NCBI GenBank assembly: GCA_050123975.1 | Contig: JASFGC010000001.1 | Span: 1 to 41,655, forward strand | Length of the DNA: 41,655 nucleotides | Origin: Syntrophobacterales bacterium | GTDB lineage: Bacteria; Desulfobacterota; Syntrophobacteria; BM002 | Direction of reading: 5' to 3' | Part shown: positions 7,294 through 30,346 of the stretch, piece by piece | Layout: each line of letters begins with the position of its first letter | Position numbering within the stretch: the stretch's first letter is position 1 | Made by a program: the position numbers and the translations under genes | Notes under the pieces: model-generated | The model's database searches: none | The model's input: the letters and a program-made list of their open reading frames with translations, nothing else | Told to the model about the DNA's origin: nothing

Positions 7294-7410
7294 GATTTCG
7301 GATTGGGATTGCGGATTAATGAAAGGCGCACGGCACAAGGCGTAAGGCTTAAGGCAATAGTAGGCTAAATCTTTTCCTTGCGCCCTGAGCCTTGAGCCGT
7401 ATGCCTCTTT
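7294..7410. repeat. composite heptamer arrays: GGATTGC family, then AAGGC(G/T)T units, a spacer, then inverted GAGCCTT units
   Basis: gatttcg gattggg attgcgg ... caaggcg taaggct taaggca ... ctgagcc ttgagcc gtatgcc. The two halves are roughly reverse-complementary. Confidence 0.8.
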
Positions 7411-8710: not shown

Positions 8711-8740
8711 GGCATAGAGCATAGAGCATAGGGTATAGAG
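8711..8740. repeat. tandem heptamer array (GCATAGA family, ~4 units) between ackA and the ferredoxin gene
   Basis: ggcatagagcatagagcatagggtatagag, directly followed by the RBS aaaggaga. Confidence 0.85.
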
Positions 8741-11015: not shown

Positions 11016-11086
11016 GATCTCAGGGTTTCAGGTGTCGGGTGTCAGGTGTCAGGAAAGAAAAACAAAAACACTGAAATCTGAGACCT
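11016..11086. repeat. hairpin-type repeat: CAGGTGT heptamer arm, purine-rich loop, inverted arm
   Basis: ggtttcaggtgtcgggtgtcaggtgtcagg / aaagaaaaacaaaaaca / ctgaaatctgagacc, immediately 3' of aor. Confidence 0.8.
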
Positions 11087-12150: not shown

Positions 12151-12197
12151 AGCTATCAGCTATCAGCTTTCAGCCGTCAGCGATCAGCGGTCAACTG
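12151..12197. repeat. tandem heptamer array (6 degenerate units, GC(T/G/C)NTCA)
   Basis: gctatca gctatca gctttca gccgtca gcgatca gcggtca, starting 3 nt after the ldh stop. Confidence 0.9.
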
Positions 12198-12236
12198 ATA
12201 TGTTTTTCCTTCAAGAAGCCGAACTCTGACAATGTA

Positions 12237-12400
12237 GATTTCGGATTGGCGATTAACGATTAGCGTGTCTTGCGAAGAAATTGGATATCTTGCACTCAAT
12301 CACGATTTTAAGAAAAAAACTAAACCGTAAATCCGAAATCCAGAATTTAGAATCAATCTTCGTTTTTAAATCCGCAATCCGCATTCCGCATTCCACAATC
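12237..12400. repeat. inverted pair of GATTNNC / GCAATCC heptamer arrays flanking ~100 bp upstream of fba
   Basis: The left arm at 12237-12265 reads gatttcg gattggc gattaac gattagc. Right arms at 12328-12358 and 12368-12400 read aaatccg caatccg cattccg cattcca caatc. Confidence 0.8.
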
Positions 12401-13445: not shown

Positions 13446-13526
13446 TTTCAGGTGCCAGGTGTCAGGTTTCAGGTGTCAGGGAAGAAGAACAACAGAACTG
13501 AAACCTGAACACTGAACACTGAAACC
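13446..13526. repeat. hairpin-type repeat: CAGGTGT/CAGGTTT arm, purine-rich loop, inverted CTGAACA/CTGAAAC arm
   Basis: tttcaggtgccaggtgtcaggtttcaggtgtcagg / gaagaagaacaacagaa / ctgaaacctgaacactgaacactgaaacc, immediately 3' of fba. Confidence 0.85.
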
Positions 13527-16730: not shown

Positions 16731-16864
16731 GGATTTTGGATTGCGGATTGCAGAATCGAAGGTTTCAGGTGTCAGGTGTCAGGAAAAAGAACAATAGAAG
16801 CTGAAACCTGAAACCCAGAGATTTCTCCTTCGGAGTCCCCACCCTGCGGGCGGGGCCCCGGTTT
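16731..16864. repeat. composite intergenic element: GGATTGC units, then a CAGGTGT hairpin module, then a 47-bp GC-rich module
   Basis: The first part reads ggattttggattgcggattgcagaatcg. The hairpin module reads ggtttcaggtgtcaggtgtcagg-aaaaagaacaatagaag-ctgaaacctgaaacc. The GC-rich module reads gagatttctccttcggagtccccaccctgcgggcggggccccggttt. A near-identical copy lies at 25140-25243. Confidence 0.9.
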
Positions 16865-19229: not shown

Positions 19230-19949
19230 GTGATGAGTGAGGTAGGTATGGACGCAGACGAAAAAACGTGTCTTCCCTTCAGCCGGGTCTGCTTTAGGGA
19301 AAGATTTTCAGGTCTGCTCATCTTCATCATGGCTATTCTTATCCTTGGACCTCTCGTTGATGAGTTTGTCCAAATACGTATCTTCATAGACATCCTTTGG
19401 ACTGCTGTTTTTGCATCCGCCATTTATGCAGTCAGCCAAAAGAAACATCATATCATTATTGCCGTACTGCTTGCTCTGCCCATGCTGGGGGGATTATGGT
19501 CCAGACATTTTGTGGGGCATCACTCTCTGCAGGTAGTGGGTTACCTGTGCGGAGCTGCCTTTATTCTTTTTGCAATTATTCAGATGCTGATCTTTATCTA
19601 TAGTCACAAGGAGGTCACCAGAGATCTTATCATCGGTGCGGCGGTAGTCTATTTGCTCATGGCCATAATGTGGACATTCGTTTTCATCGTTGTGGAGACA
19701 CTTCACCCCGGCTCATTTAACCTCCCAGAGGGTCAGAGTATAGAGACCGGCGAACATTTTATTTACTTTAGCTTTGTCACTTTAACCACCCTGGGCTACG
19801 GTGACATTACCCCCGTGACGAGACTGGCAAGAAATTTGTGTACTCTCGAGGCAGTGATCGGCCAACTCTACCTGGTAGTGCAGGTTGCCTGGCTGGTGGG
19901 TGTCCATGTTTCCCAATCAATGCTGAAGAGAGCCGGACGGGATGATTGA
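19230..19949 (+). CDS. potassium channel family protein (multi-TM N-terminus + pore loop)
   Basis: Selectivity filter TLTTLGYGDITP, flanked by hydrophobic helices. Confidence 0.8.
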   Translation: MMSEVGMDADEKTCLPFSRVCFRERFSGLLIFIMAILILGPLVDEFVQIRIFIDILWTAVFASAIYAVSQKKHHIIIAVLLALPMLGGLWSRHFVGHHSLQVVGYLCGAAFILFAIIQMLIFIYSHKEVTRDLIIGAAVVYLLMAIMWTFVFIVVETLHPGSFNLPEGQSIETGEHFIYFSFVTLTTLGYGDITPVTRLARNLCTLEAVIGQLYLVVQVAWLVGVHVSQSMLKRAGRDD

Positions 19950-19954
19950 TTGAG

Positions 19955-19978
19955 GATTTGCGATTGCGGATTGTGGAC
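19955..19978. repeat. short GATTGCG heptamer array between convergent genes
   Basis: gatttgc gattgcg gattgtg gac. Confidence 0.75.
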
Positions 19979-20893
19979 TTATTCAAGAAGCGCTGAGCGC
20001 AAGCGTTCGAGGGTAGCGTCATCTATCTCCAGCCCCTCCTTAAGATACCCCTCAAAGGAGCCGTATTTTTGGTCTATGGCCTCGAAGGCAGCTTCCAGGT
20101 ATTCCGGCCTCACTTCCATCAAGGCGCGTACTTCGCTGCGCGGAGTTCGGAAAAGAGAGGCGCAGTTGGCAAAACATGACAGTCTGTCCGCCTCACTCTC
20201 CCAGAAGGTGTTGCTCAACATGTAGTCTTCCAGTACTGTCTCCTCAGGTACACCGAGAGAACGGAGCACTATGGCCACCGAAACTCCCGTCCGGTCCCGA
20301 CCATAGGTGCAGTGAATGAGTCCGGGCAGACCTCCGGGCTCAGCCATATTCCGTAACAGCAAGGACCACTCGGAAGTGTAGTTCAAAACATAATTCCGGT
20401 AGCATTCCAGCATCAAACCTTTGAAGTCTCCCTCTTCCACATCACCTTTCAAGATCCTTTTGGCCACTGCGTAAGGGTCAATGAGTTCACAGTCAACAGA
20501 AAAATGAACCACCTCCAGCGAGGTGACTTCTGATAGCCGGGGGGGATCCTTTTCGCGTTCCCTTTCAGTGCGCAGATCGTAGACTGTCTTCACCCCGAGG
20601 GCAACGACCGCTTCAACATGTCTCTTCCTCACTCTCTTCAGGTGATCCGAGCGGTAGAGCATCCCCCTCTTGATCTGTCTGCCGTCCATGGTGCTGTAGC
20701 CACCGAGATCTCGAAGGTTGCGGGCACCAGCAAGTTCAACACGGCTGGGATGCTCTGGTGGCGCAGTAGCGCAGCCCAAGAAAAGAAGAAGGGCAGCGAC
20801 GATGATAGCGCCGAGGGATTTCGGATTGGGGATTGGGGATTGCGGATCTCGGATTGCGGATCTCGGATTGCGGAATGCGGATTTAATAATCAT
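19979..20893 (-). CDS. lipoprotein protein-tyrosine phosphatase (Y_phosphatase3-like, CX5R)
   Basis: Catalytic loop HCTYGRDRTG. Lipobox-like LLLFLGC. I place the start at the ATG at 20893 (MIIKSAF...). The track's longer ORF is read-through of the repeat array. Confidence 0.75.
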   Translation of the reverse strand: MIIKSAFRNPRSAIRDPQSPIPNPKSLGAIIVAALLLFLGCATAPPEHPSRVELAGARNLRDLGGYSTMDGRQIKRGMLYRSDHLKRVRKRHVEAVVALGVKTVYDLRTEREREKDPPRLSEVTSLEVVHFSVDCELIDPYAVAKRILKGDVEEGDFKGLMLECYRNYVLNYTSEWSLLLRNMAEPGGLPGLIHCTYGRDRTGVSVAIVLRSLGVPEETVLEDYMLSNTFWESEADRLSCFANCASLFRTPRSEVRALMEVRPEYLEAAFEAIDQKYGSFEGYLKEGLEIDDATLERLRSALLE

Positions 20894-20934
20894 TGTGGAA
20901 TTCAGATGGCGGATCACGGATCGCGGATTTAAGA
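20816..20934. repeat. 17 in-register heptamer units (GGATTGC/GGATCTC family); units 1-11 lie inside the phosphatase CDS
   Basis: ggatttc ggattgg ggattgg ggattgc ggatctc ggattgc ggatctc ggattgc ggaatgc ggattta ataatca ttgtgga attcaga tggcgga tcacgga tcgcgga tttaaga. Confidence 0.9.
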
Positions 20935-21017
20935 TGTTCAGTATATACCTCAAAAGAGTACCATTTTCGTTCAGAATCAAAGAATCTAATAGCCAGTGGC
21001 AAGTAGGTAGTACTTAG

Positions 21018-21246
21018 GTTTCAGGTGTTCCGCCGGAGGCGGATAAGGTGTCAGCAGTAAACGGTAACTCGTTATCGACAGCCATTTAACTCAAATTTCT
21101 TGATTTCTAAATTCCTCAATTGCCCTGCGGACTCCCACCCTTCGGGCGGGTTCCCAGTTTCGAAATTCGCAATTCAAAATTCGCAATTACTTCTCTATGC
21201 CCTATGCCCCATGCTCTATGCCTTCTAAAGTCCGAAATCCGCAATC
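21018..21246. repeat. mosaic of intergenic repeat modules
   Basis: A CAGGTGT fragment is interrupted by the hairpin ccgcc-ggag-gcgg. An AATTGAGGAATT module (reverse-complemented) lies at 21090-21123. A GC-rich module lies at 21123-21160. Heptamer arrays cgaaatt cgcaatt caaaatt cgcaatt and tatgccc tatgccc catgctc tatgcct follow, then ccgaaatccgcaatc. Confidence 0.85.
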
Positions 21247-21247
21247 T

Positions 21248-22567
21248 TTATTCGGTCATTTCTTTAAATTTTCGGCCTGCATAGCGCACTGCGAAGATCC
21301 AGACGATGATAATGGGAATGGTGAAACCTGAGAGCCAGCGGATGCTGGAAAAATCTGTAAACACGGTTGTAATCCCGAGGCTCACTCCCACTGCCACCGC
21401 TTTGGCAAAGCGCTGCACGAACATGTCGATGAAGGCTTTGGCTTTGTACTTCTCGTTTTTGGTGGTTGGGACGTACAGGGACTCCTTGGCCGACTGATTA
21501 ATGGAGTAGCTGAAGGCATTGTCCACCGTGTTCAGTGAACTGCCCACCCAAAGAATGGGAAGGACCGTAAAACCCATCGATCCGGCGAGCACAGCAATAG
21601 GCAGAAACAGAAGCGCAATCCCCACGCCCAGTCGGGACATGACAAAGCTGGTCAGCAACAGCTGCACCAGCATGGAGATGATATTGGTGATGGCAAAGAC
21701 CGTGGCGAACTGCTTGCCGATTTCAGGACCACTCAAGTAATGGGCGATAGTACTGGTAAATTGAAAATCCATCACCGTGGAGACTATCTCATAGAGACCC
21801 ACAATAGCCACGATGGAGAGCAGGTATCGTGAACTGAATACCAACCGCGCACCCTCTATGGCGGGATTGGACTCTCCCCGCGGTTCCGGCTCGGAGATTT
21901 CAGGCTCGGGCTCTGGGGGTGGATTTCGATTCACCAGGCGACCAGCTCCCAGGGCCACAGCGAGGATCGCGAGACCCAGACCAAAGGCGATCCAGAGCCA
22001 GCCCACCGCATTGATTCTCGCAATCAGTACCCTGACGGTTGTGGTACCGAAAACACCGCCCACGACCCCTCCCAACCCCACCAGACCGTAGAGCCGTTTG
22101 GCAGCGTCGGGGCTCACGCTGTCGTTGAGAAAGGCAAAAAAGGTTGCCACCATCAGGGTGGAGAAAAGATCCCCGAATAGATAGAAGCTCCAGACCGTAA
22201 TGCTCTGGGGCTTCTCTATTACAAAGCTGTAGGCAACGTAGCTAGCCAGGAAAAAGCCGGTGAAGATGAAGGTAAGCTGCTGCCGCCGGAAATGACGGGC
22301 CAGCCAGGTGAAAACGGCAACGGCCACAAAGGCCACCACCATGTTGAGCACCTTGGCGAGCAGTTCTGCCTGAGGACCGGACAGGTGCCAGGCAAAGAGA
22401 TCGAAGCCCGCCTTCTCGTAGAACTGGATGAAGAGGGACTTTTTGATGGGCTTGAGGATCCAGAAACTGGTGATGACCAAGAAGAAATAGCTGAACATCA
22501 GGAGGGCGAGGGGCAGCTCGGACTTCCTGATGTCGAAGATGGCCTTGAGGGGACTCTCCCGTTTCAT
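21248..22567 (-). CDS. polytopic transporter resembling the TLC (ATP/ADP translocase, Npt)-like / MFS family
   Basis: About 11-12 hydrophobic segments. The N-terminal block ELPLALLMFSYFFLVITSFWILKPIKKSLF resembles the Npt/TLC N-terminal signature as I remember it. The substrate cannot be read from the sequence. Confidence 0.5.
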   Translation of the reverse strand: MKRESPLKAIFDIRKSELPLALLMFSYFFLVITSFWILKPIKKSLFIQFYEKAGFDLFAWHLSGPQAELLAKVLNMVVAFVAVAVFTWLARHFRRQQLTFIFTGFFLASYVAYSFVIEKPQSITVWSFYLFGDLFSTLMVATFFAFLNDSVSPDAAKRLYGLVGLGGVVGGVFGTTTVRVLIARINAVGWLWIAFGLGLAILAVALGAGRLVNRNPPPEPEPEISEPEPRGESNPAIEGARLVFSSRYLLSIVAIVGLYEIVSTVMDFQFTSTIAHYLSGPEIGKQFATVFAITNIISMLVQLLLTSFVMSRLGVGIALLFLPIAVLAGSMGFTVLPILWVGSSLNTVDNAFSYSINQSAKESLYVPTTKNEKYKAKAFIDMFVQRFAKAVAVGVSLGITTVFTDFSSIRWLSGFTIPIIIVWIFAVRYAGRKFKEMTE

Positions 22568-22583
22568 TTTCTGAGCCCCTCGC

Positions 22584-23639
22584 CTAGAAAACCTGAATAT
22601 TGCCGGCGTCCACTTCGGCGATTACATGCTGGATACGGTCCCAAAGAGCATCGATCTCCGCTTTTGAAAGACCGTATTGCAGTATTCCATCTTTGTACTT
22701 CGCACCCACTTTGGGGTCCAGGTTCTTCCCCACCGGTTTCGGTTGCAGAACTCCATTCTGATCTAATTCAAACTGGACTATCACGGCCAGGAAATTCAGG
22801 TCCTGCCGTTGTATCTTTCGCAACCGCTCGATGGAATTTTTGCGCAGCGCCGGCACATGAATGTCTTCCCACTGCTGAATGAAAAAATTGTATGGCCAGA
22901 AACCAAAGGAAATGCCGTTGTCAATGGAGAATACCTGACGCCGCTTGTCGTCCTTTGAAACCAGGAATTGCCCCACCCGGTTATCGCGGTGTTGGATTAG
23001 GTAGGTGAGAAGGTTAAAGTTGGACATAAAGTAGGCGTAGGTAGGATCCTTAAGAAAGCGCGACTCATCGTACAATGTGTCGGGAACTGTGACGTCCTTC
23101 ATCCATATGGAAGCAAGACCCAAAACGCAATCCGTTCCCTCCAGGGTCGCAGCAGCATACCCACCCCTCTTCATAAACCTATCACGGGATATGCAGACCG
23201 GTAGAGCAGTGGGCACCACGTAATCTTCGGGGTCCAGAAAAAACTTCTGCACATTATAAGCAGCAATCTCTTTACGCGGCGAGGTGTTGAAGCTGTCAAC
23301 CCAGCCCGGAACATTCTTTTTGAACTTCCACTTTATGTCCTTGCCGCTCACTGTGTCATGGTTGATGAGGACCAAGGCGCCGGTGGTACCACGTGCCGTC
23401 CTCTCCACCTCCTTGGCCTGTAATTTCCCTTCCACCCCTCTCTGGTATATCTTGGTCTCCAGCTCCTGGGGGGTGAACTGCCAGTTGGGAAATTCACCTT
23501 TGACACTGGGAGAGAGGGCTTTCTTGAATTGCAGTTGGCGGTCCTCGACCGTGCCCCTGCTAGCGCAACCTGCGAAAGACAAAATGAAGCCGAACAAAAG
23601 AATGAATAAAAGTCCGAACCGAAGTGCGCTCTTTTTCAT
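22584..23639 (-). CDS. lipoprotein with kinase-like catalytic motifs (PI3/PI4-kinase or protein-kinase-like)
   Basis: Signal peptide plus lipobox (LSFAGC). It has an HRD-type catalytic loop (YLIQHRDNRVGQFLV) and a DFG-equivalent (FSIDNGISFG) about 20 aa downstream. That arrangement recalls type II PI4K (..DR..N..L / IDNGLAF). The ORF itself is solid. The fold call is tentative. Confidence 0.4.
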   Translation of the reverse strand: MKKSALRFGLLFILLFGFILSFAGCASRGTVEDRQLQFKKALSPSVKGEFPNWQFTPQELETKIYQRGVEGKLQAKEVERTARGTTGALVLINHDTVSGKDIKWKFKKNVPGWVDSFNTSPRKEIAAYNVQKFFLDPEDYVVPTALPVCISRDRFMKRGGYAAATLEGTDCVLGLASIWMKDVTVPDTLYDESRFLKDPTYAYFMSNFNLLTYLIQHRDNRVGQFLVSKDDKRRQVFSIDNGISFGFWPYNFFIQQWEDIHVPALRKNSIERLRKIQRQDLNFLAVIVQFELDQNGVLQPKPVGKNLDPKVGAKYKDGILQYGLSKAEIDALWDRIQHVIAEVDAGNIQVF

Positions 23640-23801
23640 CTCCTTCTCCTTTGGATAAGGTGGTCAAGACAATGCGGTTACTATAAGTACTGTTCATGAT
23701 TGTGTAAAGCTCTTAATTCATTAGTATGATTACCTAGACTTTTCACCAGATGGATTAACTGCTATTCTAACCCCTATTTCTCATTCGGAATTATGTAGAA
23801 A

Positions 23802-23962
23802 GATGTGAGATGTGGGATGTGGGGAGGCATAGGGCATGGGGTATGGAGCATAGAGCATAGAGTAGATGGTGGATGTGGGATGTGAGATGTGAGATTGTGG
23901 ATTTTGCCTTGTGTCCTGAGCCTTGAGCCTTACGCCTCCTGACACCTGAAACCTGAAACCTA
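23802..23962. repeat. 23 consecutive in-register heptamer units that switch between five motif families
   Basis: GATGTGR x3, TAGRGCA-like x6, GATGTGR-like x6, CCTTGAG-like x5, AMACCTG x3, with no register break (parsed by hand from 23802). Confidence 0.9.
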
Positions 23963-24010
23963 ACAGAAGATGTGGAACTAAAGGTGAACATCGTGTTGCA
24001 GAAGCATAAA

Positions 24011-25102
24011 ATGATCATCGTTAGGATTGTTGGCATCGTAACGCTATTGATAGTTACCTTGTCTTCTGTAAAAGCCCTTTCAAAGGACGATAACAGTGCT
24101 CCAGACAAACTGCTGGTGGCAGTTGTAGATGCGCCGCCCTTCTACATGAAGACGCCGGATGGGCGCTGGGAGGGCCTCAGCATCGAACTCTGGCAAGCGG
24201 TCGCTCAAGAGCTGGGTGTGGAATTCGAGCTACGAGAATACAGCTTCGAACAGTTGCGGAATGCTGTTACAAAAGACAAAGTTGACGTGATACCTGCAGT
24301 GGCTGTCACAGAGGAGCGCGAAATCATTATGGACTTAAGCCATCCCTTCCTCAGGTCGGGATCGGCCATAGCGGTAACGGCAGAAGCCACTGGGCACAGC
24401 TGGCTCCGCTTCGCAGGACATCTTTTTTCATTGAACATCCTGCCGGTGATTGGTCTCCTGCTCCTGCTGGCGCTGGTAGCCGGCACAATCGTGTGGTTAT
24501 TCGAGGCTCGCCGGAACCCCAAAATGTTCGGCGGCGGAACAGTGAGAGGAGTTGGACAGGGCATCTGGTGGGCTATAGTAACTCTGACCACCGTGGGTTA
24601 CGGAGACAAGGCGCCAAAAACGCTCGGCGGGCGAATGGTTGCGCTTATCTGGATGTTCGCCTCGATTATCCTGATCGCCAGCTTTACTGCCGCCATTACA
24701 ACCTCGTTCACCGTTGGTGAATTGAGAGGCAAGGTCCGTGGCCTGAGCGATCTACCCGATGTGCGAGTAGGCTCTTTGCCCCAAACGGCAAGCTCTAACT
24801 TTCTTGCTAAACGCGGGATCGCGGTTCGACCCTTTGAGAATTCGCGTGATGGTCTGCAGGCGATCGTTGATAAAAAAATCGACGCATTCGTTTTTAATGA
24901 ATCCATATTGAAACACCTCGCGAGAACCGAGTTTCCCGGCCGAGTGCATGTTCTACCCAGCACCTTCGATCATTACTACGTGAGCATGGCCTTGCCATCT
25001 GGCAGTCCGCTCCGGGAACTGCTCAACAGGGCCTTGCTCAAGATCATAACCCAGGACGACTGGCACAGGTTGGTGCAGAGCTATTTAGGTCGCGATCGTT
25101 GA
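24011..25102 (+). CDS. GluR0-like ligand-gated K+ channel (periplasmic binding-protein lobes S1/S2 interrupted by an M1-P-M2 pore)
   Basis: Signal sequence, then an SBP_bac_3-like lobe, M1, the pore TLTTVGYGDKAP, M2 and a second SBP lobe. The ATG at 24011 is preferred over the track's GTG at 23972. Confidence 0.8.
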   Translation: MIIVRIVGIVTLLIVTLSSVKALSKDDNSAPDKLLVAVVDAPPFYMKTPDGRWEGLSIELWQAVAQELGVEFELREYSFEQLRNAVTKDKVDVIPAVAVTEEREIIMDLSHPFLRSGSAIAVTAEATGHSWLRFAGHLFSLNILPVIGLLLLLALVAGTIVWLFEARRNPKMFGGGTVRGVGQGIWWAIVTLTTVGYGDKAPKTLGGRMVALIWMFASIILIASFTAAITTSFTVGELRGKVRGLSDLPDVRVGSLPQTASSNFLAKRGIAVRPFENSRDGLQAIVDKKIDAFVFNESILKHLARTEFPGRVHVLPSTFDHYYVSMALPSGSPLRELLNRALLKIITQDDWHRLVQSYLGRDR

Positions 25103-25139
25103 GTTCGCTTGAGATGAATAAGGTTGTAGGAGGAATGGA

Positions 25140-25243
25140 GGTTTCAGGTGTCAGGTGTCAGGTGTCAGGAAAAAGACACAGAAAAGCTGAAACCCTGAGA
25201 TTTCTCCTTCGGAGTCCCCACCCTCCGGGCGGGGCCCCGGTTT
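25140..25243. repeat. second copy of the composite CAGGTGT-hairpin + 47-bp GC-rich module
   Basis: The hairpin part reads ggtttcaggtgtcaggtgtcaggtgtcagg-aaaaagacacagaaaag-ctgaaaccct. The GC-rich part reads gagatttctccttcggagtccccaccctccgggcggggccccggttt. The 47-bp part has one mismatch against 16818-16864. Confidence 0.9.
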
Positions 25244-26892: not shown

Positions 26893-26948
26893 CCTGACAC
26901 CTGAAACCTGACACCTGACACCTTTCGTTATGCCCCATGCTCTATGCC
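26893..26948. repeat. heptamer arrays ACACCTG/AAACCTG then TATGCCC/CATGCTC
   Basis: cctgacacctgaaacctgacacctgacacc ... ttatgccccatgctctatgcc. Confidence 0.85.
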
Positions 26949-28900: not shown

Positions 28901-30346
28901 TCAAGGGCGAGACTTAACCGTTATTAAGACCTCAACATCCGGCCATTTTTTGTCTGCTGGTTGTACCTTGGGAGGCGCCACTATTTTCTTGGAGAGATTA
29001 ACATCTTTCTTGATGCTCTCCAGATAAACTGGCTCGGTCATTAAAGTGGTTCTTTGCTCCAAGTCACTTGCCGGGGCCAATATCTTTACTTGTTTCGGTT
29101 CCACAGTTACCGATACCAATTCCAAACCTTCGGGCAGAGTGCCCACCAGTTGTGGCTGTACCTCTACCACAGTCTCCACTATTTCCTCCAACGACACTGC
29201 TACGCTGGAAGGGGTTGCACCCACCAGTTTTACGCTTCTTGGGAGCAACACATTCTTTTCTGACATGACAAGAACCTGTCTCCCTGCCAAAGCCTCGGAC
29301 AAGTCAATCCTGGTACTTAAATTCAGAGGAGTTATATCATCGAGATTTGACTTCGGCCCTGTCAAATGCAGTTTGATTTCAGTCGGCTGGTCACCCGCAA
29401 GTGCAAGGTGCTTGGGGATACCAATGTATTCGATAGGAACGGTGAAAGCTTTTTCCCTTATCTCCATCTGTCCCAGAATAACACTTGACCAGACGACAAG
29501 AGCGACAATGAGACTGAAACCGATTTGAGCAATCAACTCTCGAGTCTTCATTGTTTTGGGCACTTCGATGCCGTGAAAAGCAATAGTTTCCCAGTGAGAG
29601 ATCAATTGTGTGGATAGGTCGCTCCTGTCATGGACTCTCTGGGGTTTTCCGTCGCGAAAGAGAGTAATGACCCCCCTTTCTTCCGAGACTACCACCACCA
29701 AAGCGTCCGATACTTCAGAAAGTCCAATTGCTGCGTGATGCCTGGTGCCGAAATCATTGGACAGCTTGCCCGTTTTCGATAAAGGAAGACGCACGCCGAA
29801 TTGAGTGAGTCTGCCGCCATCAATGATCAGGGCACCATCATGGCCAGGTGAATTGGGATCGAAGATACTCATGATAAGTGGATACGTGGGGGTAGCATTG
29901 AGACCCACACCGCCGGAGAGCCATCTCTCGATCGGTTCTTTACCAGGCACTACGAATATTGCCCCCCTTTTTTTCTCAGCTAAAGAGAAGGCAGTATCAA
30001 CTATGACCATGACCAAGTCTGTATGATCTCTGCCTCGCCCCCGCCCTCTAAAAGACGCTGCACTTTCGAATACCTTTCTGATTTCGGGCTGAAAAAGGAC
30101 AATCAATCCGATCAGCGCAACTTGGCTCAGATTTGAAAAAAGCCAGAGAATTCCTTTGAGGTCTAAAATGTTGGCGGCAACGAAGATAGCAATGGCCAGG
30201 AATATTCCCACCACGATTTTCCAAGCACCCAACCTGTGCAGCGTGCGATACAAGAGAAACAATGCGGCTGCCAACAGGAGAATGTCTAAAAACACCCTCC
30301 AGTCGAGCATGAGCTTGATCATTTTGAAAGTATTCAACTTCGCCAC
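28901..30346 (-). CDS. cdaA: diadenylate cyclase CdaA fused to a CdaR-like YbbR-repeat extracytoplasmic region
   Basis: It has three N-terminal TM helices and a DAC domain (LFQPEIRK, GHDGALIIDG, FGTRHHAAIGLSE, VVVVSEERGVITL). A fourth TM follows, then ~190 aa with YbbR-like beta repeats (IEYIGIP..L, V.V.LEE, V.V.PK.V.I). Confidence 0.85.
   Translation of the reverse strand: MAKLNTFKMIKLMLDWRVFLDILLLAAALFLLYRTLHRLGAWKIVVGIFLAIAIFVAANILDLKGILWLFSNLSQVALIGLIVLFQPEIRKVFESAASFRGRGRGRDHTDLVMVIVDTAFSLAEKKRGAIFVVPGKEPIERWLSGGVGLNATPTYPLIMSIFDPNSPGHDGALIIDGGRLTQFGVRLPLSKTGKLSNDFGTRHHAAIGLSEVSDALVVVVSEERGVITLFRDGKPQRVHDRSDLSTQLISHWETIAFHGIEVPKTMKTRELIAQIGFSLIVALVVWSSVILGQMEIREKAFTVPIEYIGIPKHLALAGDQPTEIKLHLTGPKSNLDDITPLNLSTRIDLSEALAGRQVLVMSEKNVLLPRSVKLVGATPSSVAVSLEEIVETVVEVQPQLVGTLPEGLELVSVTVEPKQVKILAPASDLEQRTTLMTEPVYLESIKKDVNLSKKIVAPPKVQPADKKWPDVEVLITVKSRP

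Follow-up and report, generated by a model that had tools for sequence, protein, structure and literature searches.

A candidate extracytoplasmic phosphorylation module in diderm bacteria: a kinase-fold lipoprotein, a nucleotide-carrier homologue and an exported phosphatase encoded together in a Syntrophobacterales bacterium

How could an enzyme that transfers phosphate work outside the cytoplasmic membrane of a bacterium? The textbook periplasm is free of ATP, with envelope processes powered from the cytoplasm or by proton-motive force. The question is raised by three consecutive minus-strand genes, at positions 19,979–23,639 of a 41,655-nt stretch of contig JASFGC010000001.1 (assembly GCA_050123975.1) from a Syntrophobacterales bacterium; we refer to this whole stretch as the window. 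A first-pass annotation had read the three genes as a kinase-like lipoprotein, a permease resembling nucleotide transporters and a lipoprotein tyrosine phosphatase, and had speculated that the permease supplies nucleotide to the exported kinase. We find the three open reading frames (ORFs) exactly where that annotation put them (Table 1). The gap between the kinase-like gene and the permease gene is indeed 16 bp and contains a GAGGGG ribosome-binding site, and the spacer ahead of the phosphatase gene, described as repeat-filled, is 354 bp long and packed with period-7 tandem repeats; no terminator-like hairpin was found in this spacer. Each part of the module belongs to a known superfamily. 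In the reading that we favor, the carrier would move ATP outward and ADP inward and so feed an envelope kinase, whose mark the phosphatase would reverse; we give this mechanism about an even chance of being right. The parts on which it is built are of very different strength, and we therefore take them in turn.

The first gene product is, close to certainly, an exported enzyme with a kinase fold. The lipoprotein has no sequence match in Pfam, in NCBIfam or, as a phmmer query, in the PDB, and its named homologues are called 'hypothetical protein' or carry the name of a domain fused to them. A word-indexed search returned 479 homologues, and an exhaustive search 604 family clusters at 50% identity, of which 226 lie below E 1e-30. 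From a diverse alignment of 110 relatives, which are 25–54% identical to the window protein, AlphaFold gave a model with a predicted local distance difference test score (pLDDT) of 92.9 and a predicted template-modelling score (pTM) of 0.88; the C-terminal alpha/beta domain of the window protein (residues 265–351) is modelled very confidently. When the model was compared with the PDB by Foldseek, the top 11 matches were type II phosphatidylinositol (PI) 4-kinases (E 1.6e-8 to 2e-5, probability 1.00), the best being 4hne_B (E 1.6e-8, template-modelling (TM) scores 0.48/0.50). Below PI4KII in the ranking come PI3K-gamma, Vps34 and many eukaryotic-type protein kinases, with 56 matches at E<1e-3, and no Fam20, CotH, HipA or APH structure is among the 50 Foldseek matches listed. 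The kinase assignment of the first-pass annotation thus stands, the model being a bilobal kinase fold. An earlier AlphaFold model built on 22 sequences was of low confidence precisely at both catalytic loops, and its Foldseek matches were weak (E ~6e-3, TM 0.25–0.29), every one of them a protein kinase; it has been superseded by the 110-sequence model.

Where in the kinase-like superfamily the lipoprotein belongs is suggested by profile comparison as well as by structure. With a profile of the 110 sequences the best PDB sequence is Vps34 (E 0.002), and the catalytic loop and the DFG motif are in register, HRDxxxGN of the family aligning with the DRHlDN of Vps34 (the DRHxDN loop) and (V/I)DNG with IDFG. 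Sub-threshold matches to PF00454 (E<0.1) occur in 42 of the 110 relatives, the best at 1.6e-5, and three fusion proteins checked on this family score 16–20 bits, under its gathering threshold of 27.1 bits. The window protein gives no match to PF00454 at that threshold, and because it falls below it we treat the lipoproteins as a family separate from PF00454. Further weak matches that recur among the 110 relatives are to ABC1 and Fam20C (Fam20C in 3/110), and single ones are to APH (1/110) and EcKL, all of them kinase-fold families. We conclude that the lipoprotein family is a new and unnamed one inside the PI3K/PI4K branch of the protein-kinase-like superfamily.

The residues expected of an active kinase are in place. 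They stand in canonical order, and the catalytic set is 90–99% conserved among the 110 relatives (Table 1), including the Glu of helix C, E124, which is kept in 103. The two motifs that had first drawn attention to the protein, HRDNRVGQ and IDNGISFG, were correctly read; they occupy residues 217–224 and 239–246, the second starting 22 residues after the first. Because the residues concerned are conserved to this degree and the predicted fold is that of a kinase, we regard the motifs as standing above chance. Position 224 has Asn in 100 of the 110 sequences and Gln in 9, a point to which we return below.

Export of the lipoprotein is supported by its N-terminus and by its cysteines. The lipobox LSFAGC that had been noticed lies at residues 20–25. 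Lipoprotein signals, in the kinase-like protein and in the phosphatase alike, were called by pattern, that is by a charged n-region, a hydrophobic core and a lipobox Cys. Across 115 full-length representatives of the family, 99 have a hydrophobic N-terminus and 59 a lipobox-like motif, and other representatives end their signal peptide in an ordinary way, for example with AAAQD. In the mature part, C149 and C171 covary (both are present in 81 of the 110 sequences, neither in 19 and one alone in 10; Fisher p 1e-12), and this both-or-neither pattern fits a disulfide of an exported protein. All lineages found in the locus scan described below are diderm.

The second gene product is, judged by its sequence, a true but distant NTT/TLC homologue and not a canonical ATP/ADP translocase. 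In the hidden Markov model search for TLC (PF03219) that had been proposed as a check, the permease passes the threshold with 69.4 bits against a cut-off of 21; it also matches MFS_1. The resemblance to NTT carriers had been noticed at the N-terminus. It holds, in that the match spans most of the protein; its placement does not, since the strongest stretch is C-terminal (residues 338–434). A profile of the subfamily finds only two matches in the PDB, the NTT carrier 9j3n (E 3e-28) and Arabidopsis NTT1, 9j3j (E 9.5e-23), and close homologues of the permease are named 'AAA family ATP:ADP antiporter' or 'Npt1/Npt2 family nucleotide transporter' in the databases. The permease therefore groups with nucleotide carriers and not with non-nucleotide MFS carriers, in line with the first-pass annotation. 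A crude hydropathy scan gives 10 clear and 2 weaker segments, hence about 12 transmembrane helices, and the subfamily is unusually conserved, with 72–75% identity between Desulfobacterota and Alphaproteobacteria.

Four charged residues that AtNTT1 needs for ATP/ADP binding and exchange have counterparts in the permease. K72, D133, D267 and K389 of the permease align with K155, E245, E385 and K527 of AtNTT1, where the equivalence of K155 depends on the alignment with 9j3n; the numbering of AtNTT1 was compared with the sequence that we take to be the correct one, and shows a consistent one-residue offset. Both Glu residues are replaced by Asp, so that the charge is kept at all four sites, and within the subfamily conservation reaches 90% or more at K72, D133 and K389. 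In AtNTT1 all four residues have been reported to be crucial for ATP transport (PMC10654386), and the mutants show that K155 and K527 are needed for binding of ADP and ATP and E245 for the exchange step (PMC3306366). The role that NTT carriers play in free-living bacteria, a matter left unanswered since their wide distribution was described, is acknowledged to be open (PMC5381601); the host of the window is such a bacterium. The closest database relative of its kinase-like lipoprotein, at 99% identity, belongs to a metagenome-assembled genome of the Syntrophobacterales, and the window also codes for a pyruvate kinase, a phosphoglucomutase-family enzyme, ion channels and a c-di-AMP synthase. 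Because of the metagenomic origin of the genome and its own glycolytic genes we take the host to be an ordinary free-living anaerobe, and therefore consider that the carrier does not serve energy parasitism.

The third gene product is a PtpB-type cysteine phosphatase: Y_phosphatase3 (PF13350) matches it with 225.3 bits, the cut-off being 22.2. Among solved structures it comes closest to 8dhi (E 2e-34) and to PtpB of M. tuberculosis, 1ywf (E 1.5e-19), and the CX5R loop HCTYGRDRTG and the lipobox ascribed to it are both present. The start is ambiguous, as the frame is open up to a TTG at 20980, but the lipobox is kept in phosphatase orthologues with a fully called N-terminus, and phosphatase partners whose N-terminus is complete carry signal peptides or lipoboxes. 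One of the heptamer arrays of the window, about 10 copies of GGATTGC (20816–20884), lies within the 5′ end of this ORF. Given the ATG at 20893, it codes for the n-region of the signal peptide of the phosphatase (…FRNPRSAIRDPQSPIPNPKS…), and its expansion or contraction could alter the start region of the gene.

Do the three genes belong together? A locus scan with one genome per species, using a closer alignment of the kinase family, covered 34 loci from Syntrophobacteria and other Desulfobacterota, Myxococcota, Kiloniellales/Rhodospirillales, Methyloprofundus, Steroidobacteraceae, Gemmatimonadota and Binatus. An NTT gene is found beside the kinase gene or within a few kb of it at 20 of the 34 loci, from Desulfobacterota, Myxococcota, Alpha- and Gammaproteobacteria and Gemmatimonadota. 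Looked up from the carrier side, the kinase gene is adjacent in three of four cases (L009, L011 and L053), and the fourth, L052, is a Myxococcota genome with the kinase gene on two other contigs. The kinase gene usually precedes the carrier gene; the order is reversed in L009/L010, where the stop and start codons overlap and the identity of the kinase is only 32%. Genes for the kinase-like protein, the carrier and an exported phosphatase also occur together in at least six other lineages, and the trio with a PtpB-type phosphatase is found with unrelated flanks at L007/L008, L013, L015–L018, L022, L025 and L053, and less tightly at L004. Pair or trio thus recurs across phyla at kinase identities of 32–87%, with changing flanks and gene order. 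The synteny that had been named as a check on the proposal is there: the genes stay together across phyla, in variable order.

The phosphatase slot gives a further argument. In other lineages it is taken by an unrelated exported metallophosphoesterase of PPP fold with the GDxHG/GDxxDRG/GNHE signature, whose best solved relative is the cold-active protein-tyrosine phosphatase of Shewanella (PDB 1v73, 2z72; E 5e-34). This alternative partner occurs in Gemmatimonadota, Steroidobacteraceae and others, and not in the window. It is encoded directly downstream of the kinase gene at L040, L042, L045, L046 and L050, and after kinase and carrier at L028, and in two independent proteins (P0201 and P0235) the kinase domain, preceded by one signal peptide, is fused at its C-terminus to this phosphatase. 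Exchange of one phosphatase for a non-homologous one, together with such fusions, is a classic signature, and we therefore suggest that kinase and phosphatase form a pair acting on one substrate. A functional link among the three genes is in our judgement very probable. Three candidates from these loci were set aside. In L028, an apparent 'fusion' of NTT and metallophosphoesterase (914 aa) most likely consists of two neighbouring genes joined by read-through, because its second half starts with a lipoprotein signal of its own (…LLGG/C); an SCO1664-like weak match in the C-terminus of the L042 phosphatase is unsupported (probability 1.4% in profile comparison); and in L050 a 484-aa gene that lies upstream of the kinase is no divergent carrier.

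Other genes recur around the kinase-carrier pair. At L041 (1009–4119) and L046 (3043–6234) the carrier beside the kinase gene is of a long form in which NTT, HEAT and cyclic-nucleotide-binding parts are joined, and at L004 (9579–12533) a 984-aa protein with HEAT and cyclic-nucleotide-binding parts follows a short NTT-like ORF. Major et al. left open what this architecture does (PMC5381601), and a link to an exported kinase family may explain what such fusions regulate. Class-A beta-lactamase-like proteins (PF13354), some of them with a peptidoglycan-binding domain, recur near the pair, and in P0145 a beta-lactamase-like domain lies N-terminal to the kinase domain behind a signal peptide, which may point to a connection with the cell wall or with antibiotics. 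In some Deltaproteobacteria the trio is followed directly downstream by a 439-aa ORF (L007 9386–10705; L017 from 11621); the one at L007 encodes a DUF2252 protein that shows a weak APH-like match and may be a second kinase-fold protein. Where the carrier or the phosphatase is absent from a locus, the neighbours of the kinase or carrier genes include LssY_C, HlyIII, sulfatase, DUF3604 and PhoX genes.

How, then, might the module operate? The lipid-anchored 351-aa lipoprotein would be an active phosphotransferase on the periplasmic side. The carrier would run opposite to its relatives in parasites and plastids, letting cytoplasmic ATP (or another NTP) out and ADP in, and the exported ATP would be the phosphate donor for the kinase in a compartment that otherwise has none. 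The exported phosphatase would strip the phosphate off, so that both enzymes together would set the phosphorylation state of a component of the envelope; the acceptor could be a side chain of a protein or else a head group, of a membrane lipid or a glycan. The homologies, the fold, the export signals, the conserved catalytic and nucleotide-binding residues and the genetic linkage across phyla are what the data show, whereas we infer that the lipoprotein is catalytically active, which way and what the carrier transports, and what the target is. A lipid head group would fit because of the kinase fold and the PtpB-type partner, and a protein would fit because both types of phosphatase are annotated as protein-tyrosine phosphatases. 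The further wording of the first-pass annotation, a self-contained phospho-signalling or modification system, goes beyond the data, in which neither a substrate nor an output can be identified.

Put at its broadest, the proposal is that diderms of several phyla carry out ATP-dependent phosphorylation outside the cytoplasm by means of a reversed NTT carrier, a PI4K-like kinase and an erasing phosphatase. In its boldest form the substrate would be a lipid head group, and the system a bacterial counterpart of the phosphoinositide kinase/phosphatase cycle, with a PI4KII-like kinase and a PtpB-like phosphatase. We advance this generalisation tentatively, as possible and somewhat short of an even chance.

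Several observations weigh against the mechanism. Concerning the carrier, the permease stays far below the cut-off of the NCBIfam model for NTP/NDP exchange transporters (TIGR00769; 64.1 against 387.2 bits). To our knowledge, the characterised NTTs all import their substrates. Those described in PMC5381601 do so, and for some NTT relatives the substrate is NAD or another nucleotide (PMC5381601). Export is plausible only because ATP/ADP antiport is reversible. An antiport of ATP against ADP (+Pi) would run outward in a free-living cell with high internal ATP, and for AtNTT1 an ATP/ADP(+Pi) antiport mechanism has been described (PMC3306366). Concerning the loci, no NTT gene lies near the kinase gene at 14 of the 34, several of which are at contig ends; in a distant branch (L040, L050) the kinase is paired with a phosphatase with no carrier nearby, and at L048 neither carrier nor phosphatase is near the kinase gene. 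An NTT-kinase fusion, P0232, is known from one contig and could be a read-through artefact, its linker resembling a former signal peptide; if real, it would put the kinase domain outside by way of a thirteenth helix. Concerning the enzyme, the Syntrophobacteria clade to which the window protein belongs has Gln224 (codon 22968–22970) in place of the near-universal metal-binding Asn, while the other catalytic residues of this clade are intact. There is also the matter of place. In E. coli, Ala after the lipidated Cys sends a lipoprotein to the outer membrane, and Ala follows Cys25 here, so that by this rule, which perhaps is not that of this phylum, the kinase would sit away from the carrier. 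Periplasmic ATP could moreover leak through porins, and the scheme would be costly unless the kinase sits at the carrier.

Several of these points could be turned into other explanations. The genes may be linked and the lipoprotein have the kinase fold, yet the chemistry or the donor be different: it could be an AMPylase, or a pseudokinase scaffold that regulates the carrier, or draw on a donor that the carrier does not supply. The protein-kinase-like fold also hosts AMPylases and glutamylases, and the Gln at 224 in the window clade, the NTT relatives that carry NAD and not ATP (PMC5381601) and the kinase loci that lack an NTT gene would all suit this explanation. We nevertheless consider it unlikely, as the canonical set of kinase residues is otherwise complete and stands in the usual order, the closest structures belong to genuine lipid kinases that depend on ATP, and the recurring phosphomonoesterase partner fits a phosphate mark. 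That the system scavenges nucleotides is, to our mind, quite unlikely. Here the carrier would import, as the characterised NTTs of PMC5381601 take up nucleotides, the lipoprotein would bind or convert nucleotides outside, and phosphatases would trim phosphorylated compounds for uptake; a sediment host has the nucleotides of necromass at hand, and PhoX and sulfatase genes lie near some members of the kinase family. A mere binding protein, however, needs no catalytic Asp, metal-binding Asn or DFG Asp, which are kept at 98–99%. The phosphatase partners are of protein-tyrosine-phosphatase types with no UshA-type 5′-nucleotidase among their matches, and the kinase-phosphatase fusions suggest opposing activities on one substrate.

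The beta-lactamase-like proteins point in yet another direction, namely that the kinase inactivates an incoming antibiotic or toxin, in the manner of aminoglycoside and macrolide phosphotransferases but outside the membrane. The beta-lactamase-like domain fused to the kinase in P0145, the Beta-lactamase2 genes beside the pair in L009/L010 and nearby in L004, and the one relative with a weak APH match speak for it. The beta-lactamase link is confined to a few loci, though, and a dedicated phosphatase, which undoes its work, is of no use to a resistance kinase, yet a phosphatase is adjacent or fused in many lineages; we hold periplasmic detoxification to be very unlikely. Finally, the three genes could be neighbours by chance with independent functions. 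The phosphatase gene stands 354 bp apart and flanking genes vary, but recurrence across phyla with changing flanks and order, and the existence of fusions, leave chance hardly credible. Since NTT genes are rare, we also infer that 20 co-localisations in 34 loci did not arise by chance. Phosphorylation in the envelope with ATP from the carrier, opposed by the phosphatase, is thus the explanation that we favor.

It is instructive to compare this proposed phosphorylation module with known systems. Type II PI 4-kinases (PI4KII-alpha, -beta) share with the window protein the bilobal fold, the Lys, the Glu, the Asp-x4-Asn and a DFG of IDNG type. PI4KII is tethered to the membrane by palmitoyl, so that both proteins are lipid-tethered, N-terminal lipoprotein acylation being predicted for the window protein. 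They differ in that identity is only ~15%, in that the window protein is bacterial, Sec/lipoprotein-exported and predicted to be extracytoplasmic, and in that it has an extra C-terminal alpha/beta domain. With the NTT/TLC carriers (Rickettsia Tlc1, Chlamydia Npt1, AtNTT1; TC 2.A.12) the permease is homologous over most of its length and has in common the ~12 helices and the K/D/D/K set, but it is shorter (439 against ~500–600 aa), its hosts are free-living and it is linked to exported enzymes. The phosphatase of the window has the HCxxG(K/R)DRTG loop of M. tuberculosis PtpB, which is exported and acts on phosphotyrosine, phosphoserine/threonine and phosphoinositides. PtpB is a secreted virulence factor, whereas the window phosphatase is anchored as a lipoprotein and encoded beside a kinase-like gene and a nucleotide carrier.

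For the logic of the whole, two comparisons may be made. Kinases of Fam20C type in the lumen are supplied by the ATP/ADP exchanger of the endoplasmic reticulum, SLC35B1/AXER. The proposed principle, a kinase outside the cytosol with a dedicated ATP antiporter, is the same; this is a functional analogy only, with no component orthologous, NTT being distinct from the SLC35 family. The Fam20 kinases have been reviewed (PMC7948968). Genes for a kinase and an opposing phosphatase also stand side by side in bacterial Ser/Thr or Tyr kinase-phosphatase pairs such as PknB-PstP, as in the module. In those pairs the catalytic domains of both partners lie in the cytoplasm and draw on its ATP, whereas export is predicted for both enzymes of the module, which also includes a nucleotide carrier.

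In the literature we found no description of the kinase family, nor of NTT carriers linked to exported kinases or phosphatases. The analysis defines this unnamed family, which has ~600 clusters at 50% identity, as an exported group within the PI3K/PI4K superfamily. If the proposed mechanism is true, there would be a dedicated route for nucleotide energy outside the membrane, which would overturn the rule that no ATP-driven chemistry takes place in the periplasm, and a concrete function could be offered for the NTT genes of free-living bacteria, including those that encode NTT fused to HEAT and cyclic-nucleotide-binding parts. Should a protein or lipid of the envelope prove to be the substrate, regulation of the envelope in Desulfobacterota, Myxococcota, Proteobacteria and Gemmatimonadota would gain a new level, and should export of ATP to an extracytoplasmic kinase be confirmed, the system would be without a described bacterial counterpart.

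Table 1. Features of the module, of its neighbourhood in the window and of related loci (positions are those of the window unless a locus is named; a slash in a sequence stands before the lipobox Cys)
Feature	Positions	Strand	Remarks
Kinase-like lipoprotein gene	22584..23639	-	351-aa ORF; AGGAG Shine-Dalgarno 3 nt before ATG
Lipoprotein signal peptide of kinase-like protein, MKKSALRF...LSFAG/C25	23565..23639	-	lipobox in 22/22 close relatives
Gly-rich loop GTTGA, residues 84-88	23376..23390	-	between first two N-lobe strands; G84 in 81/110
Strand IKWKFKK with K105, candidate ATP-binding lysine	23316..23336	-	K105 in 108/110; strand 100-108 of model
Catalytic loop HRDNRVGQ (H217, D219, Q224)	22968..22991	-	D219 in 109/110
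IDNGISFG, DFG equivalent (D240, N241, G242)	22902..22925	-	D240 in 108/110, N241 in 102/110
NTT/TLC-family nucleotide-carrier homologue	21248..22567	-	439-aa ORF; Pfam TLC and PDB NTT matches
Spacer with heptamer tandem repeats	20894..21247	.	TTCGAAA, CTATGCC, others
PtpB-type cysteine phosphatase lipoprotein	19979..20893	-	304 aa from ATG at 20893; PF13350
Lipobox LLFLG/C41 of phosphatase, residues 36-41	20771..20788	-	
CX5R P-loop HCTYGRDRTG, residues 194-203	20285..20314	-	aligns with HCTAGKDRTG (8dhi), HCFAGKDRTG (PtpB)
Sigma-70-like promoter candidate TTTACA-17-TATAGT	23680..23708	-	upstream of kinase-like gene; 10/12 consensus positions; weak
Heptamer arrays	1478-1515, 7294-7398, 8712-8740, 11024-11053, 12151-12400, 13448-13523, 16760-16815, 19948-19977, 20816-20928, 21159-21222, 23802-23961, 25139-25169, 26893-26923		
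Beta-lactamase-like neighbours	L009 9529-10398 and 10496-11734; L004 551-2963		
Envelope hydrolase and membrane-protein neighbours	L006 7904-9256; L005 4396-5073; L026 8498-10837; L052 3066-4982; L053 1639-3621		

Promoter and terminator scans of the region gave counts not above chance, the promoter-like sites not exceeding shuffle expectation, and an Rfam search of the window found no RNA family. The module is flanked on the plus strand by genes for a two-helix potassium-channel-like protein (19230–19949) and a GluR0-type ligand-gated channel (23972–25102), the latter made of a solute-binding domain and a pore. We left both out of the module because they are not conserved beside it in relatives.

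The heptamer repeats of the phosphatase region are part of a wider pattern. Many intergenic spacers of the window hold short heptanucleotide tandem arrays with differing units (GATTGCG, GCATAGA, CCTTGAG, AGGTGTC, CCTGAAA, AGCTATC and others), several arrays often side by side. They look like the heptamer STRR repeats of cyanobacteria, but the host here belongs to the Syntrophobacterales. Farther from the module, a 481-aa ORF on the minus strand (28901–30346) combines the N-terminal membrane domain of CdaA, a diadenylate cyclase domain and YbbR repeats in one protein; usually the cyclase is one protein and the YbbR-domain regulator another.

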